From Flavobacteriales bacterium (GTDB lineage: Bacteria > Bacteroidota > Bacteroidia > Flavobacteriales_F > PHOS-HE28), in the NCBI GenBank assembly GCA_044346705.1, contig JBIIYP010000001.1, forward strand, positions 148,634 through 212,633: a DNA stretch of 64,000 nt, in the 5' to 3' direction. The position numbers and the translations under genes are program-made. Every line of letters begins with the position of its first letter. The first letter of the stretch is position 1. This document shows, piece by piece, positions 10,236-59,700 of the stretch. The notes beneath the pieces were generated by a model, which was given only the letters and a program-made list of their open reading frames with translations, had not been told where the DNA came from and did no database searches.

Positions 10236-11783
10236 TCACCCCTTCCGCTCCAGCAGCCGATCCAATAACACCACCGGTACCAGCCCACAGGCCACGATCA
10301 GCAAGGCGGGCAGCGCGGCCTCGCTCCATTGCTCGATGCGGGCCATCTCGAAGACCTTGGTGCTGAGCGTGTCGGTATCGAAGGGCCGGAGAATGAGGGT
10401 GAGCGGGAGTTCCTTCACCACTTCCATGAGCACCAGCAGCGCGGCGGCGAGCAAGGAAGGCTTCAGCAGCGGCAGGTTAACACGGAGGAAGGTGCGCAGG
10501 GGGCTGGCGCCGAGCAGGCGTGCGGCCTCGTCCAAGCTGGCGGGTTGTTGGTCCAGGCCAGCGCGGAGGGGTTGTGTGGCGAGCGCCAGGAAGCGCACGG
10601 AGAAGGCGTAGATCATGAGCACGATGGTGCCGATCAGCACCACTCCCGTAGCATCCGTGAGCCACCCAGCGAGGCTCATGACCCCGATGGCGATCACCGC
10701 GCCGGGCACCACATAGCCGATCCCGGCCAGTTGCCCGAAGCGGCTGCGGCTCTTGCGCTGGCCGTAGCTGAGCACCAGCGCCAGCAGGAGCGTGAAGAGG
10801 GCGGCGAGCACGCCGATGAGGAGCGTGTTCCCCATGGCCGGCAGAAAGTTCGGTGCGGCCTGCATGGTGCGTTCGCGGAAAGCGTCGAAGGCCAGCGCGA
10901 CCACAGGAATCAGGAAGGCGGCGCCCAGTACCAGTGCGCAGAACAGGGAGGCCATCGCCGCCCTGAGACCGGTCAAGGGTACGGGGCGCAGGCGCTTCCC
11001 CGAAACGCTGCGCCGGGCACCGCGGTCCGAGAGGCGGCCGAGCAGCATGAGCATCAGCACCACCAGCAGCAGGATGCCCCCGATGCGCAAGGCACTGCCG
11101 CTATCGTACAGGCCGCCCCAGCTGCGGAAGATGCCGGCGGTGAGGGTGCGCACACCGTAGTGCCTCACCGCGCCGTAGTCGTTCAGCACTTCCATGGCCA
11201 CAAGCAGTCCACCGCCACCGATCGCCGGGAGCGCCAACGGGAAGGCCACGCGGAAGGCGCGGCGCAGCGCGCCACCCCCGAGCATGCGCGCGGCATCGAG
11301 CTGGTCGCTCATGCCCGCACTGAAGGCCGCCCGCGCAGGCAGGTAAACGTAGGGGAAGAGCACCAGCGCCAGCACGTAGGCCAGTCCCGAAGGGGTGAGC
11401 ATGTCGATGTGCATGCCCGTGCGCTCCGCGAACCAGATGCTGCACGCGCCGGTGGGGCCCCACAGGTCGGCGAAGGTGATGGCGCTGATGTAGGTGGGCA
11501 GGGCCAGGGGAAGCACCAAGGCCCAGCGGAAGAGACCACGTCCGGGAAAGTCGTTCGCGGCCACGAGCCACGCGGTGCCGACACCGAGGACGAGCGCGAG
11601 GAGCACGGTGCGGCTCACCAGCACGGCGGTCTCCCAGAGGTAGGTGGGGAGCAACGTGGTGCCCACGTAGGCCCACTCCGGCGCGGGCGTGTGCAGAGGA
11701 GCGGTGGCCACCACGAGCAGCGGTGCCAGCACCAACAGGGCCAAGGCACCGGTCAACCCGTGTTCACGCCAAGCTCGGGTCAT
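10236..11783 (-). CDS. Iron(III)/thiamine-type ABC transporter permease (FbpB-like, two fused TMDs)
   Basis: 515-aa polytopic membrane protein with duplicated binding-protein-dependent transport signature; downstream of substrate-binding protein gene; its 3' end is the att target. Confidence 0.8.
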   Translation of the reverse strand: MTRAWREHGLTGALALLVLAPLLVVATAPLHTPAPEWAYVGTTLLPTYLWETAVLVSRTVLLALVLGVGTAWLVAANDFPGRGLFRWALVLPLALPTYISAITFADLWGPTGACSIWFAERTGMHIDMLTPSGLAYVLALVLFPYVYLPARAAFSAGMSDQLDAARMLGGGALRRAFRVAFPLALPAIGGGGLLVAMEVLNDYGAVRHYGVRTLTAGIFRSWGGLYDSGSALRIGGILLLVVLMLMLLGRLSDRGARRSVSGKRLRPVPLTGLRAAMASLFCALVLGAAFLIPVVALAFDAFRERTMQAAPNFLPAMGNTLLIGVLAALFTLLLALVLSYGQRKSRSRFGQLAGIGYVVPGAVIAIGVMSLAGWLTDATGVVLIGTIVLMIYAFSVRFLALATQPLRAGLDQQPASLDEAARLLGASPLRTFLRVNLPLLKPSLLAAALLVLMEVVKELPLTLILRPFDTDTLSTKVFEMARIEQWSEAALPALLIVACGLVPVVLLDRLLERKG

Positions 11784-11888
11784 CGGGTGGTGAAGGTGCT
11801 GACAGCGCCGAGGAACATGCGAATGGAGCGGAACGCTCTCGCTCGGGCCAGATCCACATTTTCACATTCGATCATCTCCACATTCGCT

Positions 11889-12938
11889 CTACTTCCATCC
11901 AGCCGCTTCCAGCACCTTCACGGCGGCCGCGTTGTTGCGACCCAACGCTGCAAGGTCGAGCGTGTCGGGGGTGAAGGCCCCGAAGCCTTGGAGCACTTGC
12001 GCTGCGGGGATCCCGGCCTTCACCGGGAACTCCATGTTGCCCTCGGCGAACACGCGCTGGGCCTCATCGCTCACCAGGAACTCGAGCAACTTGATCGCTT
12101 CGGCCTCGTGCTTCGCATGTTTCGCCAAGCCACCGCCACTGATGTTGACGTGCGTGCCACGGCCATCGAGGTCGGGGAACACCACGCCGATGGCGTTCTT
12201 CGCCTTCTGCCGCGCGGGGTCGTCGCTGGTGAGCAACTTGCCGATATAGTAGCTGTTGGCGATGGCCACCTCACCCTGTCCTTCGCCGATGGCGAGGAGC
12301 TGGTCGGTGTCGCTGCCCTTGGGGTCGCGGGCCATGTTGGCCACCACACCGGCGCACCAGGCCTGGGCCTTCTCGGGTCCATCATGCGCCACCATCGCCG
12401 CCACGAGGCTCTGGTTGTACACGTTGTCCGCCGGGCGAACGAGCACCTTGCCCTTGAAACGCGGCTTCGTAAGGTCGGCGTAGGTGCGCAGCTCTTCGGG
12501 CTTCACCTTGCTCTTGTCGTAGGCGAACACGCGTGCCCGCATGGTGAAGCCGAACCAATGGCCTTCCGGATCGCGCAGGTGGCCGGGGATCGCGGCTTCC
12601 AGAATGGCGCTCTTCACGGGCTTCAGGTATCCGCGTTGGCGGGCGAGTCCCAGGCGTCCGGCGTCGGCGGTGATGATGATGTCGGCGGGGCTGTTCTGTC
12701 CTTCGGCCTCCAGGCGGCTCAGCAGCTCATCGTCATCGGCCATGATCACCTTCACTTCGATGCCGGTCTCCTTGGTGAACTGCGCGAAGAGCTGCTTGTC
12801 GGTCTCGTAGTGGCGGTGGGTGTAGACGTTCACCACGCGGGCACTGTCGGCAGTGGGTTGGGTGGTCGTGTCCCCACCGCCCTTGTTGGTGCAGGCAGCG
12901 AGCAGGGACAAGGCGAGAACGGGAAGGAGGTTGCGCAT
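11889..12938 (-). CDS. Fe(3+) ABC transporter substrate-binding lipoprotein (FbpA/AfuA-like)
   Basis: Lipoprotein signal LSLLAAC; extracellular solute-binding protein family 1 fold features; operon with permease. Confidence 0.8.
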   Translation of the reverse strand: MRNLLPVLALSLLAACTNKGGGDTTTQPTADSARVVNVYTHRHYETDKQLFAQFTKETGIEVKVIMADDDELLSRLEAEGQNSPADIIITADAGRLGLARQRGYLKPVKSAILEAAIPGHLRDPEGHWFGFTMRARVFAYDKSKVKPEELRTYADLTKPRFKGKVLVRPADNVYNQSLVAAMVAHDGPEKAQAWCAGVVANMARDPKGSDTDQLLAIGEGQGEVAIANSYYIGKLLTSDDPARQKAKNAIGVVFPDLDGRGTHVNISGGGLAKHAKHEAEAIKLLEFLVSDEAQRVFAEGNMEFPVKAGIPAAQVLQGFGAFTPDTLDLAALGRNNAAAVKVLEAAGWK

Positions 12939-13028
12939 GGGTGGGTTGAACGGCTGCGAAAGTACCAGTGGGCATTCGGTCGGCCCATCGCACGATCATG
13001 GTATTCAGGGTGGGGCGATTCGATCGGC

Positions 13029-13949
13029 CTACGCCTTGGCCAAGTCCAATGCGACCTGCACCGCCACCTCCGGCCGCACCCAATGCCAAAGCTCCTCGCG
13101 CCGCAGCCAGGTCATCTGCCGCTTCGCGTAGTTGCGCGTGTGCTGCTTCATCAAGGCGATCGCTTCATCCAGCGACACTCCCTCTCCTTTGGGGAGGGGC
13201 GGGGAGGGGCGATCGAAGTGCAGGAAGAGCTCCTTGTAGCCCACGGTCTGCAGGGCGTTGAGCTGGCGGTGGGGGAACAGGGCGCGCGCCTCTTCCACAA
13301 GGCCACGCACTACCATCTCGTCCACGCGGGTATCGATGTTTCGGTAAAGCGCATGTCGGGCCACATCCAGCGCGAAGAACAGGGGTTCGAAGCCTGGCCG
13401 GGGTCGCTTGCCGCGGTGGAGTTCGCTCACCTTGCCGCCGGTGAGCAGGCACACCTCGATGGCGCGGATCAGGCGGTGCGGGTTCTGGCGGTCGATGCGG
13501 TGCCACATGGCCTCGTCCAGCCGCTTCAGTTCATCCTGGAGAGCTGCGATGTCCATGCGTTGGAGCCTTTCGCGCAGTGCCTTGTCCGCCGGGGGGAGCG
13601 CATCGAACTCGAAGCACACGGCATCCACGTAGAGCCCGGAGCCGCCGGTGAGCACGGCCACACCATGCGCGTCCAGCAGGCGCTCGATCACGGGCAATGC
13701 GGCGTTGGCGTATTCCTGTGCGCTCACGGCCTGTTCCACCTCCAGGTGACCGATGAAGTGATGGGGCACGCCGAGCATCTCGGCTTCGGTGGGCTGGCCG
13801 GTGCCGATGGGCATGGCGCGGTAGAACTGGCGCGCATCGGCGCTGACGACCTCGGTGCCGAGGGCTTTCGCCACTTCAGCGGCCACGCGGGTCTTGCCGC
13901 TGGCGGTAGGGCCGCAGATCACGATCAGGGTACGCCGTGTGCTCACCAT
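13029..13949 (-). CDS. miaA: tRNA dimethylallyltransferase
   Basis: LIVICGPTASGKT P-loop and MiaA-wide conservation. Confidence 0.9.
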   Translation of the reverse strand: MVSTRRTLIVICGPTASGKTRVAAEVAKALGTEVVSADARQFYRAMPIGTGQPTEAEMLGVPHHFIGHLEVEQAVSAQEYANAALPVIERLLDAHGVAVLTGGSGLYVDAVCFEFDALPPADKALRERLQRMDIAALQDELKRLDEAMWHRIDRQNPHRLIRAIEVCLLTGGKVSELHRGKRPRPGFEPLFFALDVARHALYRNIDTRVDEMVVRGLVEEARALFPHRQLNALQTVGYKELFLHFDRPSPPLPKGEGVSLDEAIALMKQHTRNYAKRQMTWLRREELWHWVRPEVAVQVALDLAKA

Positions 13950-14530
13950 TCGCTCGAAGCATCATGGCCCTCGTCATGGCCATGGCCGCCCTCGTCGTGG
14001 TCGCTCTCCTCTTCCTCGAAGCCCATGTCCTCGTCGGCGTCATAGAGCTCTTCGGTCTCCAGCTTGTAGGTGTCGTCGTCCTCGGCCAGGATCCCGGCGC
14101 CGAGATCCAGGTCACGGCTGTGCTCGTGGGGTGGTTCGCCGTGGCTCAACACCACCTGCGGGTAGCGTTTGCCCTTTACAGGATCGTGCGCCTCGATCAG
14201 TTCCACCATGAACATCCACATGTGCAGGAAGTCATAGGCGTACACGAAGTGCTGGTCGGTGTCGCGGATGTGGTCGCCGATCTGCACCTGCTCCATCATC
14301 AGCGGCACAGCGCCGTCCTGTGCGAAGCCCATGTCGGCCAAGGGGATCTCCACGCCCTTGGTCCATTCGGCGTCGCTCACATAGAAGCAGGCCATCTCCT
14401 CACCGATGAAACCGAAGGCCTTCTTGATCGCCTTGTGGAAGTCGAGGAAGTTCTGCGAGCTGCGGATCTCGATGTCGCGGAACGCCTCGCTGGAGTGGTC
14501 GATCAGGACGCGGAAACGGTAGATGGCCAT
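13943..14530 (-). CDS. pRiA4b ORF-3-like family protein (acidic C-terminus)
   Basis: MAIYRFRVLIDHSSEAFRDIEIRSSQNFLDFHKAIKKAFGF... resembles PRiA4_ORF3 family; start at internal ATG 14530. Confidence 0.5.
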   Translation of the reverse strand: MAIYRFRVLIDHSSEAFRDIEIRSSQNFLDFHKAIKKAFGFIGEEMACFYVSDAEWTKGVEIPLADMGFAQDGAVPLMMEQVQIGDHIRDTDQHFVYAYDFLHMWMFMVELIEAHDPVKGKRYPQVVLSHGEPPHEHSRDLDLGAGILAEDDDTYKLETEELYDADEDMGFEEEESDHDEGGHGHDEGHDASSEW

Positions 14531-14613: not shown

Positions 14614-16260
14614 ATGATCCGCACCATCCTGTTCATTTCGAGCCTTTCCATCATGGTGTGCTCGTTGCAGGGGCAGCCGTTCGCCATCGGCTCCACGAAC
14701 CTCACGTTCACCGATCCTTCACGAGGCGGGCGCTCGATCCCGTGCGAGGTGTACTACCCTGCGACCACGGCCGGGTCCAATGTTCCGGTCGCGGCCGGTG
14801 CCTTCCCGGTGCTGGCCTTCGGGCATGGCTTCGTGATGACGGTGGGCGCTTATGCGAACGTTCGGCAGGCCTACGTACCCGAAGGGTTCATCCTCGTCCT
14901 TCCCACCACCGAGGGCGGTTTCTCACCGAGCCATGGCAACTTCGGACTGGACCTGGCCTTTGCCATTGCGTCGATGCAGGCCGAGGGTGTGGCACCGGCC
15001 TCGCCCTTCTTCGGCCATGTCCTTTCAACATCGGCGGTGATGGGCCATTCCATGGGGGGCGGTGCCTCGTTCCTGGCCGCAGGTGGGGCTCCGCAGATCA
15101 CCACGGTGGTGAACTACGCCGCGGCGGAGACGAATCCTTCGGCCATTGCGGCCGCAGGCAACGCGACCATGCCAACGCTCGTGTTCTCCGGCAGCCAGGA
15201 TTGTGTGGTGCCGGCGGCGGGCAACCAGCAGGACATGTACACCGCTTCCGCCTCCACGTGCAAGGCGTTCGTGAGCATTACAGGTGCCGGCCATTGCCAG
15301 TTCGCGAACAGCAACTTCAACTGTACGTTCGGTGAAACGACCTGTGGAGGTGCCGGTGGTCTTAGCCGGGCTCAGCAGCAGGACGCTGCACAGGACCTCA
15401 CGCTGCTCTGGCTGAAGCGTTACTTGAAGGATGATCTCACCGCAGGCGTCGCCTTCGCTGATTCACTGGTGCTGTCCGCTCGGATCACGTCGCAGTCGAC
15501 CTTCACGGATTGCCCGCCGATCGTGGTGCGCGTGAATGTGAAGGCGTTGCTCGATGGCCCCTACAACGAACAGACCGACCTGATGGGTGATGCCTTGCGT
15601 TCGCAGAACCTGATCCCGGCCTCCGAACCGAATACCGCTGCGGGTTTCGTGCATGTCGGCGGCGTTGTGGGGGAAGCGTTGGATCCGGCCTTGCTCACGG
15701 TCACAGGTTCCGATGCGGTGGTGGACTGGGTCTTCGTGGAAGTGCGTGATGCGGGAACGGGCGTTCAGGTGCTGACCACGGCGAACGGCCTGGTGCAGCG
15801 CGATGGCGACATCGTGGCGGCGAACGGGGCCGTGCTGACCTTCAGTGCGCCGCCGGGCAACTACCGGATCGCAGTGCGCCACCGGAACCATTTGGGCTTG
15901 ATGAGTAATGCGGCTTTCTCCTTGACCCGCGACCCCATCGCCATCGACCTGTCCGATCCGCTCACGATCGCTTACGGCACGGAGGCGCGCCGCTTGCGCG
16001 ATGGCAAAGCCCTGCTCTGGGCCGGTAACGCGCGTTTCGATGCGGAGCTGAAGTACACCGGTGCGCAGAACGACCGCGATCCCATGTTGCAGGTGATCGG
16101 CGGCATCGTGCCCACGCTCACGGTCACCGGTTATTTCACGGAGGATGTGAACCTGGACGGGGTGGTGAAGTACGCCGGCGCGGTGAACGATCGCGATCGC
16201 CTGCTGCATTCCATCGGCGGTGTGGATCCCGTGGTGGTGCGGCAGGAGCAGCTTCCGTAA
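14614..16260 (+). CDS. Secreted alpha/beta hydrolase (esterase/lipase-like, GHSMGG nucleophile elbow) with about 250-aa C-terminal module ending EQLP
   Basis: Signal peptide; GHSMGG motif; C-terminal module shared with ORF 44158-46755. Confidence 0.7.
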   Translation: MIRTILFISSLSIMVCSLQGQPFAIGSTNLTFTDPSRGGRSIPCEVYYPATTAGSNVPVAAGAFPVLAFGHGFVMTVGAYANVRQAYVPEGFILVLPTTEGGFSPSHGNFGLDLAFAIASMQAEGVAPASPFFGHVLSTSAVMGHSMGGGASFLAAGGAPQITTVVNYAAAETNPSAIAAAGNATMPTLVFSGSQDCVVPAAGNQQDMYTASASTCKAFVSITGAGHCQFANSNFNCTFGETTCGGAGGLSRAQQQDAAQDLTLLWLKRYLKDDLTAGVAFADSLVLSARITSQSTFTDCPPIVVRVNVKALLDGPYNEQTDLMGDALRSQNLIPASEPNTAAGFVHVGGVVGEALDPALLTVTGSDAVVDWVFVEVRDAGTGVQVLTTANGLVQRDGDIVAANGAVLTFSAPPGNYRIAVRHRNHLGLMSNAAFSLTRDPIAIDLSDPLTIAYGTEARRLRDGKALLWAGNARFDAELKYTGAQNDRDPMLQVIGGIVPTLTVTGYFTEDVNLDGVVKYAGAVNDRDRLLHSIGGVDPVVVRQEQLP

Positions 16261-38176: not shown

Positions 38177-40495
38177 TTGCGGACAATTACACCCAACCTA
38201 GCTGACATGAGAATCACGACCAACCTGTGCAAGAGCTTTATCCTCATGGGGATCATGCTCGTGTTGTTCCCCTCGCAGCGCATGCGCGCTGCATGTTTTA
38301 CCAGCGTGGTCGATCCCTCCTGGCACATGATCAACGGCGCCACGGCCGCTGACCTGCACGCTGCCGCGCCAAGCGGTATGGCCCCGTCCTCCATGATGGT
38401 GGTTTGCTCGGCCGGCCCGGCGTCCACAACGCCGACGTTGTGCGTGAACACGGCACTTACGCCCATCACGCACACCACGTCCGGTGCCACGGGTATCGGC
38501 TCGCCCACGGGACTTCCTGCCGGTGTAACGGCGAGTTGGGTGGCGGACGTGATCACGATCACCGGGACACCCACGGCTGACGGCACTTTCAGCTACAGCA
38601 TCCCCCTTGATGGCGGCTGCGGCTTCGTGAGCGCTGTGGGAACCATCACCGTGGTTGCGACCGGCACGGTGGGTGCGGCTTCTTCGAGCCCCTCCCTGTG
38701 CATCAACACGCCGTTGACGGACATTACGCACAGCACCTCAAGCGTAACTGGTATCGATACTCCTTCAGGATTGCCTCCCGGTGTTACCGCCACGTGGTCG
38801 AACCAAACCATTACGATCAGTGGTACACCCACCACTGCCGGTACATTCAACTACACGATCCCGGTCATCGGTTGCAGTGGTCCAACGGCTACCGGAACCA
38901 TTACGGTGATCATGCTTCCCAATGTCATTTACGCTGTTACCAATGCCAGCTGCGTTGGATTTGGGAATGGCGCCATCGATCTGTCGGTCGATGGGTCCGG
39001 TCCATTCTCCTTCCTGTGGTCGCCCGGTGCCCAAACCACCGAAGATCTGGGCGGCATTGTTGACGGTAGTTATGCGGTTACCGTGACCGGTGCAGGTGGT
39101 TGTTCCACCGATGTTCCGGGTATGGTGGTAGGCAGCTCCGGTACGCTGCTCGGTGCTTTCCAGGATGATGACGGCGATGCGTATGGAGATCCATTGGTGA
39201 ACACTACCTATTGCTCGGCGGCCAGTGAACTGGATTCCACGAATTTGATCGTCGATGGTAGCTTCGAGGATCAGGCCTCCCTGCAGAACCTTCCCGGATA
39301 TGTGCCGGCAAGTGCACCGAATGAAGTATGGGGTGCAGGCTGGAACAACTGGGGCTGGACCTCTTGGCAGGATATTACCGGAAGCGGTGCATGGACCGGT
39401 GGTGCCATCGCCCGTACCGAGGAGTTCGCTGCCGGCTGGAAACGAGCCCATACGGGGAATGTTTTCGGTATCATCAAGGACAATTTCAGCATGAGCCAGA
39501 CGTTCACGGTCGCTAGCGGAGGTGACGGTATCGGGAAATTGAATTGGTATGATGCCAATCGTGCCAGCTGGAGGGAACACGACTGGTTTGGACGCGATAA
39601 CACCTATGACGTTACGCTTACGGACGACCTGGGTAATGTTCAACAACTAGGTACCTACACCAGTAAGGTGGCAGGTGGCACGAATTATAGCACGCCTCCC
39701 GGTGGATACGGCTGGTGGACAACGCAGGGCAAGGATTTCTGGTTCGCCCGCGCCAGCAATGACTTCACCCTCGTGGCCGGCAGAACCTACACCCTGTCGT
39801 TCAACAGTCTGACGACGAACGATGACCGCACCACCTTCCTGGATGACATCATGATCGTCAGGCGCGCACTGAATACGGTGCCTGCCGGCTATGTGACCGA
39901 TTCCTCCGACTGCAATGATGCCAGCGCGGCCGTGAATCCCGGAGCGACAGAGGTGTGCAACGGTGATGACGACGACTGCGACGGCTATATCGATGATGCG
40001 GATCCTTCGGTAACTGGTCAGGATACCTGGTACGCGGATGTGGACGGTGATGGGTTAGGCTTCGGTACCAGCACAGGCCTCGCTTGCACCGCTCCGAACC
40101 CAGGCGATGTGACCAACAGCACGGACAACTGCCCCACCGTTCCCGGTGTGATCGGTTCTAGCTGCGATGACAATGATCCGGCCACCGAGAACGATGTTCT
40201 GAACCCCAACTGCGTCTGCGCCGGTGAGCCGATCGACGTGAACACGGGTTTGACCAGCCTCAGCATTCCCGGCGTTCGTGTGTATCCGAACCCGGCGAAC
40301 GACCAAGTGACCATCGAAGGATCAATTTCCGGCCGTATCGCCGTGATCGATCTGCAAGGCCGCACAGTGATCATCAGCACGACCAATGGTGCTGCGTTGG
40401 TGCGCATCGATGTTTCAGCGATCGCTGCGGGCAGCTACATGCTGCGCGCGTTGGACGGTACCGGCGGCATGCTGGGCCGGTTCACGAAGGAGTGA
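38177..40495 (+). CDS. Large secreted adhesin-like protein: He_PIG Ig-like repeats, SprB repeat, MopE-like Cys-rich metal-binding motif, T9SS CTD
   Basis: Three LP.GVTA.W....ITI.GTPT..GTF.Y.IP repeats; C.G.GNGAIDLSV...WSPG...DL..G.Y.VTVT...GC SprB repeat; DCND....VNPGA.EVCNGDDDDCDG; C-terminal VRVYPNPANDQVTIE... Confidence 0.75.
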   Translation: MRTITPNLADMRITTNLCKSFILMGIMLVLFPSQRMRAACFTSVVDPSWHMINGATAADLHAAAPSGMAPSSMMVVCSAGPASTTPTLCVNTALTPITHTTSGATGIGSPTGLPAGVTASWVADVITITGTPTADGTFSYSIPLDGGCGFVSAVGTITVVATGTVGAASSSPSLCINTPLTDITHSTSSVTGIDTPSGLPPGVTATWSNQTITISGTPTTAGTFNYTIPVIGCSGPTATGTITVIMLPNVIYAVTNASCVGFGNGAIDLSVDGSGPFSFLWSPGAQTTEDLGGIVDGSYAVTVTGAGGCSTDVPGMVVGSSGTLLGAFQDDDGDAYGDPLVNTTYCSAASELDSTNLIVDGSFEDQASLQNLPGYVPASAPNEVWGAGWNNWGWTSWQDITGSGAWTGGAIARTEEFAAGWKRAHTGNVFGIIKDNFSMSQTFTVASGGDGIGKLNWYDANRASWREHDWFGRDNTYDVTLTDDLGNVQQLGTYTSKVAGGTNYSTPPGGYGWWTTQGKDFWFARASNDFTLVAGRTYTLSFNSLTTNDDRTTFLDDIMIVRRALNTVPAGYVTDSSDCNDASAAVNPGATEVCNGDDDDCDGYIDDADPSVTGQDTWYADVDGDGLGFGTSTGLACTAPNPGDVTNSTDNCPTVPGVIGSSCDDNDPATENDVLNPNCVCAGEPIDVNTGLTSLSIPGVRVYPNPANDQVTIEGSISGRIAVIDLQGRTVIISTTNGAALVRIDVSAIAAGSYMLRALDGTGGMLGRFTKE

Positions 40496-40509
40496 TCAAC
40501 GGCAATTGA

Positions 40510-40548
40510 AAAAGCCCCTGGCCGTCGAACGGTCAGGGGCTTTTTGTT
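40510..40548 (+). terminator. Rho-independent terminator
   Basis: aaaaagcccctggccgtcgaacggtcaggggctttttgttg. Confidence 0.7.
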
Positions 40549-40753
40549 GTGCGCTACCGACACCGATCGCTTCAGCACACCGGTGCCTTCAACGATCGGG
40601 ACCCGATACTGGTCATTATCGGTGGCGCTGTTCCGAACAGCACCCATCAGGAGCAGGTGCCTTGACAAGACCGGATCGCATTTTTACGGACAGGCCCGGC
40701 GCTTTGGTCCGGGCCTGTCGCATCTTTGGGCACCAACAGCAACTTCCACGGCC

Positions 40754-42805
40754 ATGCGTACATCACTTCTCCTCTCCTTACTGACCATCTGGGGCTCGGC
40801 CTTCGCACAATGCGGTGCGGGCGAGGTCGAGGTCGAGATCGCGGTTTCCACTGATGGGTACGGCTATGAGACCTATTGGGAACTTCTGCCGAACGGGTCT
40901 GCATGCGGCAGCGGCACCCTCTTCGCTGGAGGCAATCCTGCCGTAGGCTGCAACGGCGCGGGACTTCAGGCACAGCTTCCGGGTGGCTACGGCAACAACC
41001 TGGTGATCACCGAAGGGCCTTGGTGTCTCACCGCCGGTGGGTCCTACGCCATCTTCTGGGCCGATGATTGGGGCGATGGCGGGGTCTCCTTCGACGTCAT
41101 CGTCGATGGGGTGAGTTCGGCCCAGTTCGTGGGTGTCGGCGGTAGCCCGGCCGAGACGTTCACCTTCCTCGCCCAGCAGCCCGTGGACCATGATCTGGAG
41201 TTGACCCTGTTGAACACCCCGCTCTATGTGTTCGAAGGCGGGGACCTGTTCATCACTGGCGATATGAAGAACGCCGGGATGCTTACCGTGAACAGTTGCG
41301 AACTGAGCTATACGGTGGATGGTGGGGCTCCTGTTGTTGCCGCTCTGAACGGTCTCAACCTTGCCCCGGGTCTCACCTTGGCTTTTGAGCATCCGGTCCC
41401 TTGGGCCTCGGTCGGTGTTGGAATGCACGTCATCAGCGTTCAGTCGCTTACGGTGAACGGGAACCCGGATGGCAATACCATCAATGACGTGGCGACCATG
41501 GATACCAAGGTCCAGGCACCGGTGCCGAACATCATTGACCAGTACCTGCAGGCCGCACCAACGGTGAACGTGATCGCCGATTCGGACCAGGATCTTCTGG
41601 TGCCGCGAGACCTGGATTTCCACCCTGACATGGACCGCAATGAGCTGTGGGTCATCAACAAGGACGTGGAAAGCTCCGGCGGGAGCACGGTCACCTTTTT
41701 CGGTCCTGGCGCCGCGGATATGGAATGGATGTGGAAGCGCGATCCGAACGCCTGGCACTTCATGAGCCTGCCCAGCGGCATCGCCATGGGCGATAACAGG
41801 TTCTTCTCCACGAGTCCCGGCATCTTCGATGCCAACCAGAACGGGGGGGATCCTTTCACGGGCCCGACCTTGTGGAGCGCGGACACATCGATCTATGCGG
41901 CCACCATCTATGGTCCGTTGGGAAGCCACTTCGACATGCTGCATGTCACGCCGAACAGCCAGGGCATCGCGCATGAGCGCTGGAACAAGTATTGGGTCGT
42001 GGACGGGTTCAATGGCGATGTTGTCATGCACGATTTCGCTGGCGATCATGGTCCGGGCAACAGCTACCATGGGAACGCCATCATCAGGCGCTACGCTGAT
42101 TTCACCATCACCAAGGACCCCAATGACCACATCGTGAGCCACACCGTGCTGGACAAGGCAACGGGCTGGTTGTACGTGGTGGATCATGGCGGACAGCGGG
42201 TGCTGCGGTTGGATACCCGCACGGGCTCGGTGAGCGGTCCGGGAACCTATGGCCCTTGGGAGAGCTATGTGGAGTACAGCATGGTCTCCGGTTACGATTG
42301 GGACGTGGTGGCGAGCACCGGACTGGTGGAGCCTGCCGGAATTGAGGTGATGGGGGATCGCCTGCTGGTGAGCGACCATGCCAACGGCCACATCGTGATG
42401 TATGATATCTCGGTCGACCCGGTGGTGGAGCTCGGACGGATCCTGACCGGTTCGGCGGGTATCATGGGCATCCGTGTGGGGCCTGATGGGCGGATCTGGG
42501 CGGTCAATGCCACCACGCACCAGTTGCTCCGCGTGGACCCCGCCGCGATCACAGGTGTGCCTGAGCTTCAAGTCCTCACTCCACGCGCTTATCCGAATCC
42601 TGCCCAGGATCAGCTTCAGTTCGACGGCATGGAGCTCGCGAATGGTTCCGTATTGGAGGTCGTGGACATGGCGGGCAGGGTTGTGGCCAGGCCCACGTAC
42701 CGGGGTGCCGGGCGTTCCATTGATGTGTCCATGCTGCATCCCGGGCCGTACCTCCTTCGTGCATCCGGTGGTTCGCAGCACCTCAGGTTCGTCATTCAGC
42801 GCTGA
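40754..42805 (+). CDS. Secreted protein with T9SS CTD (unknown function)
   Basis: Signal peptide MRTSLLLSLLTIWGSAFAQ; C-terminal AYPNPAQDQLQFDG...GPYLLRASGGSQHLRFVIQR. Confidence 0.65.
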   Translation: MRTSLLLSLLTIWGSAFAQCGAGEVEVEIAVSTDGYGYETYWELLPNGSACGSGTLFAGGNPAVGCNGAGLQAQLPGGYGNNLVITEGPWCLTAGGSYAIFWADDWGDGGVSFDVIVDGVSSAQFVGVGGSPAETFTFLAQQPVDHDLELTLLNTPLYVFEGGDLFITGDMKNAGMLTVNSCELSYTVDGGAPVVAALNGLNLAPGLTLAFEHPVPWASVGVGMHVISVQSLTVNGNPDGNTINDVATMDTKVQAPVPNIIDQYLQAAPTVNVIADSDQDLLVPRDLDFHPDMDRNELWVINKDVESSGGSTVTFFGPGAADMEWMWKRDPNAWHFMSLPSGIAMGDNRFFSTSPGIFDANQNGGDPFTGPTLWSADTSIYAATIYGPLGSHFDMLHVTPNSQGIAHERWNKYWVVDGFNGDVVMHDFAGDHGPGNSYHGNAIIRRYADFTITKDPNDHIVSHTVLDKATGWLYVVDHGGQRVLRLDTRTGSVSGPGTYGPWESYVEYSMVSGYDWDVVASTGLVEPAGIEVMGDRLLVSDHANGHIVMYDISVDPVVELGRILTGSAGIMGIRVGPDGRIWAVNATTHQLLRVDPAAITGVPELQVLTPRAYPNPAQDQLQFDGMELANGSVLEVVDMAGRVVARPTYRGAGRSIDVSMLHPGPYLLRASGGSQHLRFVIQR

Positions 42806-42815
42806 GCCAGCATCG

Positions 42816-44090
42816 ATGATCTTACCGTCCATGCGCACGAACGTGAAGGTGCTTGTGGTGCTGTGTGCCGCGCTCGCTGCTGGAACGGCCATGGCGCAGA
42901 CATGGGAGGTCTTCGACATGAATTCGGCAGGACTGCCCAGCAACACGGTGCGTGCCTTGGCGGTGGCTCCGAACGACGATGTCTGGGTGGGTACCGAGTT
43001 CGGCCTGTGCCTGTTAGACGGATCCAACTGGCAGGTCTTCCAGACGGGTTCATCCGGCCTGCCTGACAACGATGTACGTTCCCTTGCGGTGGATGACACC
43101 GGTGCGGTCTGGATCGGTACGCTCGGGGGGCTGGCCTGCTACGACCAAGGCGCGTGGGAGGTTTACACCACAGGGAATTCAACACTGCCCGAGGATTACA
43201 TCCGCAGCCTCGAGATCGCCCCTCAGGGTGGGGTCTGGGTGGGCACCGTGGGCGGCTTGTCGTGGTTCGATGGCGATACCACCTGGCATCATTACAACGA
43301 CACGCCGGGGAGTTACGCTGGTCTTCAGTTGCCCGGGAACAACATCGCAGCGCTTTGCGCACGGTCTGATGGGGCGCTGTGCATCGGCACGGTGAACGCG
43401 GGCTTCACCTACCTCACGGATTCCACGGTCACCGTCTACACGACCTTCTCCAACGGCCTTCCGGACAACACCGCCTTGGGCGTGGCCTTGGATGGGCAGG
43501 GTTCGCGGTGGCTGGCCTGCCCCGCCGGAGCCCTGCTCAACCATGCCGGTGACCTTGTCGGGGGTGCTTGGGTACAGTTCAGCACCGTGAACTCGTTGTT
43601 GCCGTCCAATTCCCTGACCTGCATCGAAGTGGATGGGTGGGACCGGAAGCTGATCGGCAACCAGATCTCCGGGTTCACCATCTTCCAAGGCTTCAGCAGC
43701 TTCACCACCTACACCATGCAGAACTCCGACCTTCCGGGTGATGAGGTCCTGAGCCTCGCCTTGGACGGGGCCGGAAATGTATGGATCGGCACCTCCAGCG
43801 GGGGGGCGGCGCGCTTCGGCTACGCCGTCGGCCTCGAGGAGCAAAAGGCCAATGACGGAATGGTGGTGTTCCCGAACCCGGTGACGGACGATCTGCGATT
43901 CGTGCACCCGGCCGCAGATGGCGGCCGGTATCGGCTTCTGGACCTTTCCGGGCGTGTTCTGTCGATGGGGCCTTCTTCCTCCGGGACCACCGTAGTGGAC
44001 CTGCGTGATGTGGCCACCGGCACCTATGTGTTGGAGGCCTTCGATGCTGGCGCACAGCGCCTTGCATGCCGTAGGATCCAGCGTCTTTGA
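42816..44090 (+). CDS. Two-component-regulator-propeller (Reg_prop) repeat protein with T9SS CTD
   Basis: Repeated LP.N.V..LA.D..G..WIGT..GL....G..W blades; signal peptide; C-terminal VVFPNPVTDDLRF... Confidence 0.7.
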   Translation: MILPSMRTNVKVLVVLCAALAAGTAMAQTWEVFDMNSAGLPSNTVRALAVAPNDDVWVGTEFGLCLLDGSNWQVFQTGSSGLPDNDVRSLAVDDTGAVWIGTLGGLACYDQGAWEVYTTGNSTLPEDYIRSLEIAPQGGVWVGTVGGLSWFDGDTTWHHYNDTPGSYAGLQLPGNNIAALCARSDGALCIGTVNAGFTYLTDSTVTVYTTFSNGLPDNTALGVALDGQGSRWLACPAGALLNHAGDLVGGAWVQFSTVNSLLPSNSLTCIEVDGWDRKLIGNQISGFTIFQGFSSFTTYTMQNSDLPGDEVLSLALDGAGNVWIGTSSGGAARFGYAVGLEEQKANDGMVVFPNPVTDDLRFVHPAADGGRYRLLDLSGRVLSMGPSSSGTTVVDLRDVATGTYVLEAFDAGAQRLACRRIQRL

Positions 44091-44157: not shown

Positions 44158-46755
44158 TTGCTTGTACGTTCCACCTTGTTGGCCGTGATGGTCACTGTCA
44201 GCCTTTCCGATGCATTGGGTCAGTGCACCGTTTCCGGCATCACTACGCCGAACGGAACCAACACCAGCGCGACCAGCTGCCTCTGCGACACGGCCGGGCA
44301 GACCGACTGTGATCTTCGGCCTGATGTAATGATCGCATGGAGCGCTCTCCAGACCTACGCATCCGGCCCCAGTGAGTACCCGCAGGTCTGCAGCGGAGGC
44401 TGCTCAGGGAACGATGGCCGGTTGAGGGTGACCGGGGCAACGCCGAACATCGGCAATGGGCCCTTGAATTTCCGTGGCGTGGACAAGGATGGTAAACGCT
44501 GGTTCATCTGCGGAACGGACACCTTCAGTATCGTGGACCCCAATTCGACACAGACCTTCAGTTGCCCGAACAGCGGCCTGACCAAGCAATTGGTGGTGCA
44601 GCGGGTGTACAGGAAGGTGGGAACCAGCATGCGCTTCACGGAGCGGTTCGCCGGCACCATGACCTATCACCCTTCACACGGCCACAATCACGTGGATGAT
44701 TGGGTGACGTTCAGCCTGCGACTCGCGATCGCCAATGAGCCCAACCCGTTGAATTGGCCCATTGTAGGTACGGGTGCCAAGGTCGGCTTCTGCCTGATGG
44801 ACTATTTCTCATGCACCAGCGCCAGCGGCAATGGACATTGCCGTAATGATCACATCTACAACCAGGGCACCGTGCTCAACCAGCAGTCCCAGTTCCAGAA
44901 TTTCGGCCTGGGTGGACAGGCCTATAACTGCAGCCCGGTCAGCCAGGGCATCAGCGCCGGATGGGAGGATGTGTACAGCGAAAGCCTCGATGGCATGTGG
45001 ATCAACATCCCACCGGGTACCTGCAATGGCAGCTATTATATCGTGGCGCAGGTGGATCCGTTGAACAACTTCCTGGAAAGCAACGAGAACAACAACTGGA
45101 CGGCGATACCGTTCACGCTGACCCAGCAGGCCCCTGCGAACAGTGGTGGAACATGCGGCATCATCTCGGACCGTGAGCCGGTGCTCTGCAGCGGGGAGCA
45201 GGTGGTGCTCACTTGCCAGAACGCAGGTTACACCTACCTGTGGAGCACCGGAGCAACGACGCGCAGCATCACCGTGGATCAGGGTGGGAACTACACCGTG
45301 ACCGTGACCAATCCGTGCGGTACCATGACCTCCGCGCCATACACGGTAACGGTGTTGAGCGCAACGGCCCCGGTGACGACAGGTGCGGTGCTTTCCGCGC
45401 CGGGGACGGCCACGTTGACGGCCACAGGCACGGATCTTCATTGGTTCGCACAGCAGGCCGGGGGAACCGAGATAGGTGTAGGCACCTCGTTCGTGACCCC
45501 AACGCTATACCAGACCACCACCTACTGGTGCGAAGCACGGGCCATGCAACAAGGGGTTTCCGCCTATGTGGGAAAGCCAACGAACACTGGTTCGGGCGGG
45601 TACAGCAGCAATGATGAATACCTCGTTTTCGATGCCTACAAGGACCTGGAGATCAACTCCGTTCGCGTGTACACCACGACGGCCGGCAACCGTACGTTCC
45701 AGGTGCTGGCGGAGGATGGCTCCTTCATTGCCCAGGCCACGGCCTTTGTGAGCACGGGGAATACGCGCGTGACCTTGAACCTGCAGGTGCCTCAAGGGAA
45801 CAACCTGCGGCTGTATGTCACCAATTCCTTGCGCAGCCTGTATCGGAACAGCAGTTCTTCAGGTGTGAACTATCCCTATACCGTTCCCAACATCCTCACG
45901 ATCAGAACGAGCAGCGTGGGTGTGGCGGCTTATCCCTATTGCTACGATTGGGAGATCAGCACACGGGACAAGGTGTGCGCCAGCGCTCGTGTTGCCGCGA
46001 CGGCAACGGTGAACGGCACCCTCGCGCTGGGCCTCTCCGTCTGGCTCGAAGGAGCCTATGTTCAAGGCAGCGGACAGATGCGTGACGACCTGCGCGGTCA
46101 AGGCCTGATGCCTTCACAGGAGCCCTACACGGCGATGGGCTTCACCCAGACCGGCGGTGGGGGGGGCGAGACGATAGCGCCTGCACTGCTCAGCACGACC
46201 GGCGCATTGGCACCTGTGGATTGGGTGCTTGTTGAGCTGCGCAATGCTGTCGATCCCTCGGTCATCGTGGCCACACGCTCTTGCGTGGTTTTGCGGAACG
46301 GCCAGGTGGTATCCCCAGCAGGTGGTGCCGTCCAATTCGTTGGCTCGGTGGGCCCCTACCATGTGGCCATCAGGCACCGCAACCATTTGGGATGCATGAC
46401 CGCTGCAGCGGTCTCCTTGAGCCCCATCGTCACCACCATCGACCTCAGGCAGGCGTCCACGGCCACTTGGGGAACGGACGCCCGCCGCACCTCCGGTTCC
46501 GCGATGGTGCTTTGGACCGGCAACGTGGTGATGAACAATGCGCTCCGGTACACAGGTGCGAGCAACGATCGCGATCCGATCCTTCAGGCCATTGGCGGCT
46601 CGGTTCCGACCGGCATCCTGTCCGGATATGTCACCACCGACGTGAACCTGGACGGACTAACGAAGTACACAGGTGCTTCCAATGACCGTGACCCGATCCT
46701 GTTGAACATCGGAGGGTCGGCTCCCACGAGCATCCGGTTGGAGCAATTGCCTTGA
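44158..46755 (+). CDS. Secreted multidomain protein with lysyl-oxidase-like (LOX) copper amine oxidase domain, Ig-like domains and C-terminal EQLP module
   Basis: YHPSHGHNHVDDW (His-rich Cu site like WHSCHQHYH), KVGFCLMDYFSC (like K.SFCLED.C), ISAGWEDVYSESLDGMWINIPPGTCNGSYYIVAQVDPLNNFLESNENNN (like GCYDTY...CQWIDITDV.PGNY.L.V.VNP...ESD..NN). Confidence 0.65.
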   Translation: MLVRSTLLAVMVTVSLSDALGQCTVSGITTPNGTNTSATSCLCDTAGQTDCDLRPDVMIAWSALQTYASGPSEYPQVCSGGCSGNDGRLRVTGATPNIGNGPLNFRGVDKDGKRWFICGTDTFSIVDPNSTQTFSCPNSGLTKQLVVQRVYRKVGTSMRFTERFAGTMTYHPSHGHNHVDDWVTFSLRLAIANEPNPLNWPIVGTGAKVGFCLMDYFSCTSASGNGHCRNDHIYNQGTVLNQQSQFQNFGLGGQAYNCSPVSQGISAGWEDVYSESLDGMWINIPPGTCNGSYYIVAQVDPLNNFLESNENNNWTAIPFTLTQQAPANSGGTCGIISDREPVLCSGEQVVLTCQNAGYTYLWSTGATTRSITVDQGGNYTVTVTNPCGTMTSAPYTVTVLSATAPVTTGAVLSAPGTATLTATGTDLHWFAQQAGGTEIGVGTSFVTPTLYQTTTYWCEARAMQQGVSAYVGKPTNTGSGGYSSNDEYLVFDAYKDLEINSVRVYTTTAGNRTFQVLAEDGSFIAQATAFVSTGNTRVTLNLQVPQGNNLRLYVTNSLRSLYRNSSSSGVNYPYTVPNILTIRTSSVGVAAYPYCYDWEISTRDKVCASARVAATATVNGTLALGLSVWLEGAYVQGSGQMRDDLRGQGLMPSQEPYTAMGFTQTGGGGGETIAPALLSTTGALAPVDWVLVELRNAVDPSVIVATRSCVVLRNGQVVSPAGGAVQFVGSVGPYHVAIRHRNHLGCMTAAAVSLSPIVTTIDLRQASTATWGTDARRTSGSAMVLWTGNVVMNNALRYTGASNDRDPILQAIGGSVPTGILSGYVTTDVNLDGLTKYTGASNDRDPILLNIGGSAPTSIRLEQLP

Positions 46756-55316: not shown

Positions 55317-56723
55317 ATGAGCAAGATCAAGTTCGGTACCGACGGATGGCGTGCCATCATCGCCGATGAGTTCACCGTGGATAACGTGGCCCGGGTGAGC
55401 GTGGCCACGGGCAATTGGGTGAAGCAACGCTTCCCCACGGAGGCCTCCATCGTGGTGGGCCACGACTGCCGCTTTGCCGGTGAGCTCTTCGCCGAGACGG
55501 TGGCCAGGGTGTTCATCGCGCAAGGCATCCGTGTCCACCTGGCCAAGGGTTTCGTGAGCACACCGATGATCAGCCTCGGCGCGTTCCGGTTGAAGGCCAG
55601 CATGGGGGTGATCATCACCGCGAGCCACAACCCCCCGGCCTACAACGGATTCAAGCTCAAGGGCTCCTACGGCGGCCCGCTGATCCCAGAACACGTTCAG
55701 GAGATCGAGGACATCATTCCCGCTGTGCATGGCCTGGACCTCGCGGAGGTGGACCTGAAGAAGGCCGAAGCGGAGGGCATGCTGAAGTACGTTGATCTGG
55801 AGTCGATGTACGTGGAGCATGTAGAGCGGAACTTCGACCTGGAGAGCATCCGCAAGAGCGGGCTGCGCCTGGCCTATGATGCGATGTACGGTGCCGGCCA
55901 GAACGTGATCCCCAGGATCCTGCCGGACGCCGCGCTCCTGCATTGCACCAACGACCCCTCGTTCCGTGGTCAGGCCCCCGAGCCCATCCACAAGAACCTC
56001 ATCGAGTTCAGTGAACTGATCAAGAAAGGGGGCATTGACTGTGGCCTGGCCACCGATGGCGATGCGGACCGCATCGGTCTGTACAACGGCAAGGGCGAGT
56101 TCGTGGATTCGCATCACCTCATCCTGCTGCTGATCCACTATCTGGTGAAGTACAAGAAGTTCAGTGGCAAGGTGGTGGTGGCCGTCAGCACCACGCCGAA
56201 AGTGGAGAAGATGTGCCGCCACTACGGGCTGGAGTACCAGGTGGTGAAGATCGGCTTCAAGTGGATCTGCGGCATCATGATCAATGAGGATGTGTTGCTG
56301 GGTGGAGAGGAGAGCGGCGGCATCGCCATCAAAGGCCACATCCCTGAACGGGACGGTATCTGGATGGGGCTCACCATCTGGGAATACATGGCCAAGAGCG
56401 GCAAGGACCTCGACGCGCTCGTTCAAGAGGTCTACGCCATCGTAGGACCCTTCAGCTATGACCGCAGCGACCTGCACATCAGCGAAGCGTTGAAGCAGGA
56501 CGTGCTGGCCAAGTGCACCAGCGGTGCCTTCACCAGGTTCGGGGACCTTGAAGTGCGCCGGTTGGAGACCATCGACGGCTGGAAGTACCATTTCGACAAC
56601 GACCAGTGGCTCATGATCCGCGCAAGCGGCACCGAGCCGGTGCTGCGCACCTACGCCGAGAGCAACAGCCTGGAGAACGCCCGAAGGATCCTGGCGGCGT
56701 GCAAGGAGGCCATCGGGGCCTAG
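55317..56723 (+). CDS. Alpha-D-phosphohexomutase family (phosphoglucomutase/phosphomannomutase)
   Basis: MSKIKFGTDGWRA, active site TASHNP, GLATDGDADR metal loop. Confidence 0.85.
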   Translation: MSKIKFGTDGWRAIIADEFTVDNVARVSVATGNWVKQRFPTEASIVVGHDCRFAGELFAETVARVFIAQGIRVHLAKGFVSTPMISLGAFRLKASMGVIITASHNPPAYNGFKLKGSYGGPLIPEHVQEIEDIIPAVHGLDLAEVDLKKAEAEGMLKYVDLESMYVEHVERNFDLESIRKSGLRLAYDAMYGAGQNVIPRILPDAALLHCTNDPSFRGQAPEPIHKNLIEFSELIKKGGIDCGLATDGDADRIGLYNGKGEFVDSHHLILLLIHYLVKYKKFSGKVVVAVSTTPKVEKMCRHYGLEYQVVKIGFKWICGIMINEDVLLGGEESGGIAIKGHIPERDGIWMGLTIWEYMAKSGKDLDALVQEVYAIVGPFSYDRSDLHISEALKQDVLAKCTSGAFTRFGDLEVRRLETIDGWKYHFDNDQWLMIRASGTEPVLRTYAESNSLENARRILAACKEAIGA

Positions 56724-59700
56724 TCCTTCACGAAGGGCATGCGCTCCAGTACAGCGCCCTCACTACCGAGCACCTGCAGCGTGTAATGGCCTGCTGCCAT
56801 GTTGTGGAGGTGCAGGGTCACCACGCCCGGGTGCTGGATAGGGGTGGGGCGTGACAGCAGGATGCGACCAAGATCGTCGGTCACCAAGACCTGTTGTGCA
56901 CCCTGTGTCCGGGTAAGGTCGACCATCAGGTCCTCTTGCACCGGGTTCGGATACAGCACGATGGTCGTGTAGCGTTGGATGGCCACGATGGGCGAATGTT
57001 CGCTCGTTCCATCGAGGTCCACCAGGTTCAACCGGTAATAGGCGAGGCCCGGAAGTGGACCTTGGTCCCTGTAGCGATAGTTGATCGTTGCGGTGCTCAG
57101 GCCGGCTGCCGGAAGACTGCCGATGGGCACAAAGAGCCGTGCGTCGGTGGAGCGTTGAACCTCGAAGACGGCACTGTTCGATTCCGATGCCGTGACCCAC
57201 TCCAGCAGGTTGTCCTCCCCTTCCGGTCGGCCATCGAGCGAGACCAGTTCGACGGGCAGCACACCGATGTCCCCCACACCATTGGCGTAGCTGTAGAACC
57301 ACCTGCTGTAGCGTTGTCCATCGATCAGTTTGGCCAGGTCATATTCCTCCCTGACACGCCACTTGTAGCGCAGCTGACCGGGCAGCTTGTAGACCAGTTC
57401 CTTGATCTCGGCGCCGTTCAAGGGCAGGGTCGTCCAAGAGGCGCCGAACCCGTTTGATGCCACACTGGTGGTGATCGGGTTGCCCAGGAAGGGCTGGCCT
57501 TGGAAGATGATCTCGTAACGTAGCCGCGACCTGCAGCGATGAACAGGATTGCGCGCCCGGTGACCGATGCCGAAATGGTCCGGATCGCTGAAATCCATGC
57601 CGTTGGTGCTCATCGGTGTCACGAGATCGGAATCGTACTGGCGCGTGAGGCGCCCGAGGCCGAGCGCATTGTTGCCGCGGTGCCAGAAGGTGGCGCCTTC
57701 TGCAATGAACGCGGGGGCCGCGAGCGGAGCACCGAGGAGCACATCGCTGTAACCGTCGCCGTCCAGGTCACCCCCACCGCTGACGGCTGCGCCGGATCGG
57801 GCTCCCGCCAGGTTGTTCTCAAGAACATCATGGCCTGCGGCGGTGAGCCCTGTGGGAGAGCCACGGTACACATACACCAAACCTTCCGCCGGTTGCCCGT
57901 TGGCGCCAAGCGGTGATCCAATGATCACATCGGCGTACCCATCGCCATTAACGTCACCGGCCTCCGCAACGGACCGGCCCATGGCGCTGCCCGGCAGGTT
58001 CCGCTGAAGGATGATCGTGATCGCGGCCTGGGTGCCCGAGGCAGAGCCGTTGAAGATGAAGGCGGCCCCCTCATCGGCTTCGCCCACGGTCGATTCCCAT
58101 TGATCGGCACCTACGACCACATCGAAGTATCCATCGCCATTGATGTCGCCCGCACCGGATACGCTTGCACCGAAGCCTGCACCGGCCTGGTCGGCTTCGA
58201 GGCGGCGGGCATAAGGCACTACGATACCGGTGGTCGAGCCCAGGTAAACGAACGCAAGCCCTTCATTGAGCTGGCCGTTCGAACCCAGCCGCGCTCCGAC
58301 GATCACATCGCTGAATCCATCCCCGTTCACATCGCCCGCGGTGTTCACTGAACCACCGAACAGGCATGACGCAGGAGCTTCCGATAGGATGAGCGAAGGG
58401 ATGTTGGAAGGTCCGCTCGGGGATCCATGGAAGAGGAAGGCCTGACCGCTGCCGGGAGCACCGATGAGCAGATCACCGAAGCCATCGGTGTTCACGTCAC
58501 CGGCCGGAGCCACGGAGCTGCCGAAAAGCGAGCCTCCCGTTAGCGTTTGGAGGGGCACCGCTGAGAGCCCACCGGGACCGCCCATGTATACGTAAGCGGT
58601 GCCCGTGCCGTCAAGTGGAGCGCCCACGACCACGTCAGCATACCCATCACCGTTCAGATCCCCTGCGCTGGCCACACTGCTGCCGAAGGCCGATCCCGCA
58701 ACGCCGTTCTGGAGGGTGACGGACGGCAGGAAAGAGAGCCCGGTGGCGGAGCCGCAGTGGAGATAGGCCTGCCCGCTGCTTGCAGCTCCCCCGAACGCAC
58801 CGGGCGCACCGAACAACGCATCGGCATACCCATCGCCGTTCACGTCGCCTGCATTCGCCACCGCGGTGCCGAGAACAGCGTTGGTCGCAGCACCGAACCG
58901 CGCAAGTGAACTGGTGGTGGAGGTGCCCACTGCACCACCATGGAACACGGCGGCCGCACCTCCCGAGCCATAGATGCGGGCACCCAGGATAACATCGCTG
59001 TATCCGTCGCCGTTCACGTCGCCGGCAGGGTTGATGCTCTCGCCCAGGTTCGCGCCTGCCGAATTGAGCTCCCATTGCACGGCTGCGGTGGTCGGGATGC
59101 CGGTGGGTGCGCCCAGGTAAAGGCGGACCACCCCTTCCTGAGCCTGGCCGGCGTTGAACAGCGTGGCGCCGACCATCACGTCCGCATACCCATCGCCGTT
59201 CACATCACCGGCCGTGGCCACGCTGCGCCCGAACCATACACCGGCCACGCTGCCGTCCAGCAAGGCGGCGGCCACCGGGTTGATGCCTGCCGGGCAGCCG
59301 TGGAACACACGGGCCGTTCCTTCGGCGAGCTGTCCACCTTGGTTGTCCAAGTACGCGCCCACGATCACGTCGCTGTAACCATCGCCGTTCACATCCCCGG
59401 CCGTGGATACCGACCACCCGAAGGAGCCGTTGTTCACCGTGCTTCCGTAAAGTGTGAGCGAAGGTGAAGGGTTGGGACCTGCGCCCAGCCCCGTGGGGGA
59501 GCCGTGCCAAACGAAGGCTGCTCCGGCATCCGGATTCACGTTCGGGGCATCCGGCGCGCCCACGATCACATCGCTGTATCCGTCGCCGTTCACGTCACCG
59601 GCGCAGGCGAGGCTGCGACCGAAATGCCCGCCCGAGATGTTCCGTTCCAAACGGTGCAGGGGAGCGGGGGCAAGACCGGTGGCGGATCCCAGGTGGAGCC

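Follow-up and report, generated by a model that had tools for sequence, protein, structure and literature searches.

A large C-terminal module of Flavobacteriales secreted proteins that interchanges with type A sorting domains and is predicted to resemble an X-module-dockerin pair

[quoted passage not shown] We analyzed this question in a stretch of 64,000 nucleotides (the window; G+C content 60.5%) from Flavobacteriales bacterium assembly GCA_044346705.1, contig JBIIYP010000001.1, positions 148,634 to 212,633. The two genes concerned are referred to as A and B. Gene A (14614..16260, + strand) encodes a 548-residue protein consisting of a signal peptide, an alpha/beta hydrolase passenger and the C-terminal module. 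Its start was recognized by eye as a Sec signal peptide (MIRTILFISSLSIMVCSLQG/Q), and its residues 57-236 match the Pfam families PETase (E 2.3e-10), Chlorophyllase, DLH and Hydrolase_4, by which the N-terminal part is assigned to the alpha/beta hydrolases of the PETase/chlorophyllase/dienelactone hydrolase type. The exact gene A protein is also present on 22 metagenome contigs, with identical neighbors. Gene B (44158..46755, + strand) encodes an 865-residue protein that starts, again by eye, with a typical Sec signal peptide and carries a lysyl-oxidase-like passenger (Pfam matches Lysyl_oxidase, CARDB and Ig_7) in front of the module; its orthologs of equal length are 75-98% identical.

The BLASTP comparison of A with B gave one colinear alignment, between residues 279-548 of A and 600-865 of B (120 of 270 positions identical, 44%, with 4 gaps; E=1e-66), and no significant segment outside it, the N-terminal parts being unrelated. 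A common C-terminal module on two otherwise unrelated secreted proteins, as proposed in a sequence-only reading of this DNA, is thus borne out at a length of about 250 residues. The motifs quoted in that reading (VDWV.VE.R, RHRNHLG, LW.GN, KYTG..NDRDP.L..IGG..PT twice, and EQLP before the stop) are all present and mark where the family is most conserved. The C-terminal location stood for both proteins, while the start of the module had to be moved upstream from 15600 to about 15514 in A. As delimited by BLASTP, tblastn and the alignment, copy A occupies about 15514..16257 (+ strand, 248 residues), with a beta-sandwich part at ~15514-16002 (+) and a duplicated, dockerin-like part at ~16003-16257 (+) that ends in RQEQLP and a stop codon. 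In copy B, the N-terminal 165 residues (46003..46497, +) form a predicted Ig/transthyretin-like beta-sandwich with a 70-residue N-terminal elaboration, and the C-terminal 85 residues (46498..46752, +) form a dockerin-like pair of two 39-residue repeats that ends in EQLP.

Scans with Pfam-A and NCBIfam placed no model on the module, at E<=1 for whole proteins and E<=10 for sub-pieces. The search with CTD profiles that had been suggested earlier returned no match at E<=1 to type A (TIGR04183/PF18962) or type B (TIGR04131/PF13585, CHU_C) domains, and for type C (ChiA-like, cl41395) there was no NCBIfam match on the module, the presence of a type C model in NCBIfam being unconfirmed. PF00404 (Dockerin_1) did not match sub-pieces of the module at E<=10, and no carbohydrate-binding module or lectin family matched it by sequence. 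Alignment of profiles with hhalign yielded a probability of 0.3% against 55 aligned type A CTDs and a non-significant 0.7% against three canonical dockerins. Among PDB sequences, a profile of the whole module found 0 matches at E<=10, and a profile of the dockerin-like part found dockerins as 3 of its 5 best, non-significant matches (E 0.32-2.2). Type A CTDs (TIGR04183/PF18962) were recognized in five other window proteins, including the products of the three genes immediately upstream of B, in agreement with the earlier claim that the module is distinct from the type A CTDs of its neighbors. Judged by these profile searches, the module is absent from the domain databases and is covered by no entry. 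A literature search retrieved no paper that joins dockerins to T9SS cargo of Flavobacteriales.

The structure prediction proposed in the sequence-only reading was carried out with AlphaFold2 on a 39-sequence alignment and gave one confident body (pLDDT 94.5, pTM 0.91). In this model, a beta-sandwich that is elaborated at its N-terminus takes up residues 1-165, and residues 166-250 comprise two short strands and two helices (191-196 and 229-236). In structure, the module matches a protein-protein docking module far better than anything else. The C-terminal part contains an internal duplication of 39 residues (174-212 and 213-250) with the pattern [D/N]-x-N-x-[D/N]-G-x-V-K-Y-T-G-x-x-N-D-R-D-P-I-L-x-x-I-G-G-x-V-P-T, whose positions 1-6 correspond to the positions of an EF-hand/dockerin loop. 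Conservation of these positions is high in repeat 2 (D213 100%, N215 83%, D217 83%, G218 97%), and repeat 1 has [N/D]174 and [D/N]178. Two features of X-module-dockerin pairs (XDoc) are found in the module, namely two tandem loop-helix segments and an Ig-like X-module that lies directly N-terminal to the dockerin part and packs on it. The canonical 12-residue loop with an acidic position 12 is absent, as is recognition by Dockerin_1; position 12 is a glycine (98-99%), and the helix begins 6 residues later, after the invariant NDRD. Membership among the dockerins is therefore supported by predicted structure and pattern and not by profile statistics, because both the PDB profile search and hhalign were non-significant. 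The sandwich has its own invariant residues (D28, R31, P37, P41, VDW72-74, R80, G100 and HRNH125-128).

The module belongs to a large family. When 1.84 billion cluster representatives, each standing for a cluster at 50% identity, were searched exhaustively with a profile, 13,253 clusters matched at E<=1e-3, of which 10,184 remain at a cut-off of E<=1e-10 and 4,198 at one of E<=1e-30. A word-indexed search returned 547 relatives, of which the named ones are all proteins of 'Flavobacteriales bacterium' metagenome-assembled genomes (MAGs) annotated as hypothetical. By scanning one genome per GTDB species we confirmed at least 592 loci; among the 80 matches listed, all are from uncultured Flavobacteriales/Bacteroidota MAGs, with several loci per genome and no cultured member. 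Both window proteins show a signal peptide, as do most of the full-length relatives. The N-terminal partners in 58 full-length representatives include DUF5122 propellers, reprolysin, M36 and S8 peptidases, GEVED, MAM, PKD, FN3, SprB repeats and Ig_7, which, by these domain matches, are what surface and T9SS cargo of Bacteroidota usually carries. Across such unrelated passengers, more than 45 positions of the module are conserved in at least 95% of sequences. In the window together with the fetched loci (895 kb), we counted 110 open reading frames (ORFs) with the module and 50 with a type-A-like CTD, a ratio that is biased because this DNA was fetched for carrying the module or, in a few cases, relatives of neighboring genes; the window alone holds two copies and a relic of the module and five type A CTDs. 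Even with this bias, the module clearly ranks among the major classes of C-terminus that these genomes encode.

Among 342 proteins with a complete module, it lies at the extreme C-terminus in 339. The EQLP-type endings were tabulated across these proteins: 288 end in QLP and 324 in Q-[LVIM]-P. A type A hidden Markov model built in this work matched none of the 342, and none has a type-A-like CTD beside the module. Exceptions to the C-terminal rule are P0181 and P0097, in which the module stands right behind the signal peptide and is followed by other sequence, resembling in P0181 the Fibrobacter 'major paralogous' domain. The subtilase-like protein P0126 (1083 residues, JGI metagenome) has three tandem divergent copies that end in QVP, RVP and NVP(T), and its loop regions look nearer to ordinary dockerin loops. 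EQLP was also considered as a sortase- or exosortase-like signal at a free C-terminus and was rejected: no transmembrane segment or basic tail follows it, it aligns with the end of repeat 2 (xGYx in repeat 1), and the tandem copies of P0126 end in internal QVP and RVP.

The relation of the module to established sorting domains was analyzed on homologs of the two passengers. The 614-residue passenger of B was searched alone, and its best 120 homologs (46-98% identity, nearly full coverage) comprise 63 proteins that end in the module, always C-terminally (median length 852 residues), 55 that have a PF18962 type A CTD (median 696 residues) and two that are truncated. None carries both; the module and the type A CTD are mutually exclusive on orthologous passengers. 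For the 300-residue passenger of A, 80 metagenomic loci with 76 complete ORFs were obtained, of which 59 have a type-A-like CTD. The three closest relatives (71-76% identity) carry the module at the end, and in a 46% identical relative from a soda-lake sediment metagenome contig (L147, ORF from 1750) a canonical Dockerin_1 domain (27.6 bits) replaces the CTD or module. The rest include several with weak type A or FlgD_ig-like ends and a few that lack a recognizable C-terminal domain. Thus, the module acts as a modular tag at the C-terminus and can be exchanged for either the type A CTD or a canonical dockerin.

High-affinity, calcium-dependent binding to a cognate cohesin is one of the defining features of XDoc. 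The nearest known system is the X-module with a type II dockerin in the clostridial scaffoldins CipA of C. thermocellum (PDB 2B59, 3KCP, 5G5D) and ScaA of A. cellulolyticus (4U3S). The module differs from it in several respects: identity is about 16% and there is no profile match, it has 250 residues including the N-terminal elaboration whereas XDoc has about 160, its loops are 18 residues long with a KYTG insertion and the invariant NDRD in place of 12-residue loops, its hosts are diderm T9SS bacteria and not Firmicutes, and it sits on enzymes and adhesins of every kind whereas XDoc sits on a scaffoldin. Canonical type I dockerins (PF00404) are likewise C-terminal docking tags on enzymes with signal peptides and occupy the same slot on the same passengers (L147 above, and the allele P0401 of a window gene described below). 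In contrast to them, the module goes unrecognized by PF00404, has an obligatory beta-sandwich and extended loops, and is far more common in the sampled DNA of this clade (110 ORFs against 1). Dockerins on non-cellulosomal proteins, including those of FCB-group bacteria, were reportedly described by Peer and colleagues in 2009. Candidatus Stygibacter is an FCB-group bacterium with dockerins, and a MAG-based precedent from the same superphylum has dockerin-tagged enzymes proposed to bind a cohesin scaffoldin that itself has a T9SS CTD (PMC8542988). Among our sequences, the Bacteroidota-like repeat protein P0471 (829 residues, JGI metagenome) matches Cohesin at 25.8 bits, just above the cut-off, and Dockerin_1 at 19.7 bits, below the cut-off of 22.9; at its C-terminus the type A CTD model matches faintly (14.3 bits, E 0.051, far under the 27-bit cut-off). 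By these matches P0471 is a possible example of cohesin-bearing T9SS cargo.

With the T9SS CTDs of type A (TIGR04183/PF18962), type B (TIGR04131/PF13585) and type C (ChiA-like) the module shares its place at the extreme C-terminus of multidomain Bacteroidota proteins that are exported by Sec and are either surface-located or secreted. It has no sequence or profile similarity to them, is about three times longer, and ends in a helical and loop-rich part, whereas a CTD is a seven-stranded sandwich. Unlike type B CTDs, which are often linked to a porP/sprF-like gene, the module has no conserved neighbor at 79 loci.

We favor, with a little more confidence than doubt, the reading in which the module is a divergent XDoc-like, calcium-dependent docking tag that stands in for the type A CTD and binds one conserved envelope receptor; it is preferred because the tag interchanges with type A CTDs and dockerins and because its predicted structure is XDoc-like. 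According to this model, the tail is self-contained, with an Ig-like beta-sandwich that packs against a duplicated, probably calcium-binding, EF-hand-like loop-helix pair; across a large uncultured clade of Flavobacteriales that possess a T9SS, it is fused to the C-termini of many different Sec-exported enzymes and adhesins. After export, it would bind the receptor non-covalently and in a calcium-dependent manner, and this binding would decide whether the cargo is shown at the surface or joins an assembly on a scaffold. The receptor could be cohesin-like, or it could be a shuttle or anchor protein of the T9SS. The shared module, the size of its family, its strict placement at the C-terminus, its predicted fold and its exclusivity toward the type A CTD are results of the analysis. 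That the module binds calcium, that a receptor exists and what it is, and how the cargo crosses the outer membrane are computational inferences, as are all functional statements about the module. As to the receptor, no conserved partner gene stands beside the module genes in the 79 loci, and the 895 kb contain no cohesin-like ORF. Besides the gene of P0401, the same DNA holds no further canonical dockerin.

The module might instead be a T9SS secretion signal in its own right, a 'type D' CTD that is read by the translocon or by a PorV-like or PorP/SprF-like shuttle and is needed for outer-membrane translocation, its dockerin-like shape being incidental or forming the shuttle-binding surface. 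We regard this as unlikely, even though much of the evidence would fit it. In position the module resembles a sorting domain, as it occupies the extreme C-terminus of Sec-signal proteins in T9SS-encoding Bacteroidota and, as far as sampled, is found in such bacteria only; its cargo types are typical of T9SS, it excludes the type A CTD where the cargo is orthologous, and the same window encodes type A cargo together with a PorZ-like protein. The accepted CTD types are not limited to A and B, type C (ChiA) being another, and for type B there are signals that require over 200 residues (PMC10202324). Shuttle proteins recognize CTD classes, type A being recognized by PorV and type B by PorP/SprF (PMC12618676). 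The very high conservation of the module would also suit one conserved machine as its partner. On the other hand, the rare N-terminal or tandem internal copies in P0181, P0097 and P0126 speak against a free C-terminus being strictly required. The docking and secretion-signal readings are not fully separate, as the part of the 'cohesin' could be played by a shuttle. It is possible, if doubtful, that the module represents a fourth class of T9SS sorting and anchoring domain on an X-module/dockerin scaffold, with about a third of the surface or secreted cargo of a widespread, uncultured Flavobacteriales clade selected and/or anchored by a calcium-dependent contact of the cohesin-dockerin type with a dedicated T9SS shuttle or a surface scaffold; the T9SS would then have acquired a docking principle like that of cellulosomes.

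Two further explanations seem to us improbable. One is a calcium-dependent, lectin-like attachment to a glycan and not to a protein receptor, the glycan being, for example, the cell's own lipopolysaccharide (LPS) or capsule or an environmental polysaccharide. Against it, the best structural match is a protein docking module; carbohydrate-binding modules are normally neither confined to the extreme C-terminus nor mutually exclusive with a sorting domain, and the family searches matched none of them. The same small chance is given to an accessory domain with a stabilizing, oligomerizing or substrate-binding role, brought to the C-terminus merely by domain shuffling in this clade. It would explain why the 79 loci and 895 kb yielded no receptor or partner gene, and the 3' ends of these genes are prone to recombination. 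However, the absence of any T9SS CTD from the 342 module proteins, and of module and CTD together from the 118 informative orthologs of the lysyl-oxidase-like type, is hard to square with it, because cargo with an accessory tag would still need a CTD. The conservation of the module across unrelated passengers likewise argues for a common external partner. Overall, the earlier suggestion of an alternative sorting/anchoring domain or attachment module is judged to be supported, and the module is new either as a divergent XDoc-type dockerin or as a new CTD type. None of these models accounts for the invariant polar cluster on the sandwich (D28, R31, D73-W74, R80 and H125-R-N-H128).

To our knowledge, work on how T9SS cargo is sorted to different fates has so far dealt with type A (PorV, LPS attachment) and type B (PorP/SprF shuttles) alone. 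In the present case, one very large, highly conserved and uncatalogued module replaces the type A CTD of orthologous cargo, and a protein-docking device is what its predicted fold resembles. Should the module prove to be a docking or sorting tag, many thousands of proteins that are now annotated as hypothetical would form a new class of cargo, and a conserved receptor would be predicted. The module merits a domain-family entry, as its proteins are currently annotated by their N-terminal parts alone.

The gene at 38207..40495 (+ strand) encodes a surface protein with SprB/MopE repeats and a type A CTD at its end (TIGR04183, E 5.4e-9). Its allele P0401, on a contig (L084) that is 98.7% identical in nucleotide sequence over 1.8 kb, has extra MopE repeats followed by a canonical dockerin (Dockerin_1, 29.5 bits, above the cut-off), and its allele P0413, on an 87.9% identical contig (L083), has the module at its end (E 1.6e-90), terminating in QQLP. 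The downstream genes differ among the three contigs, so these genes recombine freely at their 3' ends. A clean in-place swap of cassettes between conserved flanks was ruled out, since the three alleles diverge 3' and their downstream genes differ.

Behind the window gene lies a third, 3'-only copy of the module, an intergenic and non-coding relic of about the last 34 codons (40561..40665, +; tblastn E=4e-7 and 3e-5). It translates as HRSLQHTGAFNDRDPILVIIGGAVPNSTHQEQVP and a stop (...HTGAFNDRDPILVIIGGAVPNSTHQEQVP plus stop, with the end ...NDRDPILVIIGGAVPNSTHQEQVP before it). The relic is flanked by two hairpins, a terminator hairpin after the gene (40509-40545; -29.9 kcal/mol, z -7.4) and a second one at ~40689-40719 (-26 kcal/mol, z -3.7); the strong hairpin was revealed by folding and not picked up by a consensus terminator scan. 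The relic looks like the remnant of an earlier, module-ended version of 38207..40495, a fossil of C-terminal cassette exchange.

Several other ORFs were noted in the window and the fetched loci. An apparent conserved neighbor cluster of 41 members was rejected, as it is an antisense shadow ORF of the module, conserved because the module itself is conserved. Such shadow ORFs antisense to real genes, expected at 60% G+C, occur at 10329-14045 (+), at 15463-16209 (-) and, at 31 other loci, opposite the module. The product of 42474-44090 (+), which lies directly upstream of gene B, has two-component-regulator-propeller repeats and a type A CTD, and partially matches the PorZ model NF052228 (99.7 bits, well under the 260-bit cut-off). 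The 1398-residue product of 56720-60916 (-) has an XAC2610-related domain and, by the hidden Markov model built in this work, a type-A-like CTD. Near the window start, 3333-4715 (-) encodes a tyrosine recombinase (Phage_integrase, E 1.7e-39), which together with ORFs that, among the scanned window proteins, match the Pfam families AbiEii toxin, DUF4143 and AAA_14 may belong to an integrated element.
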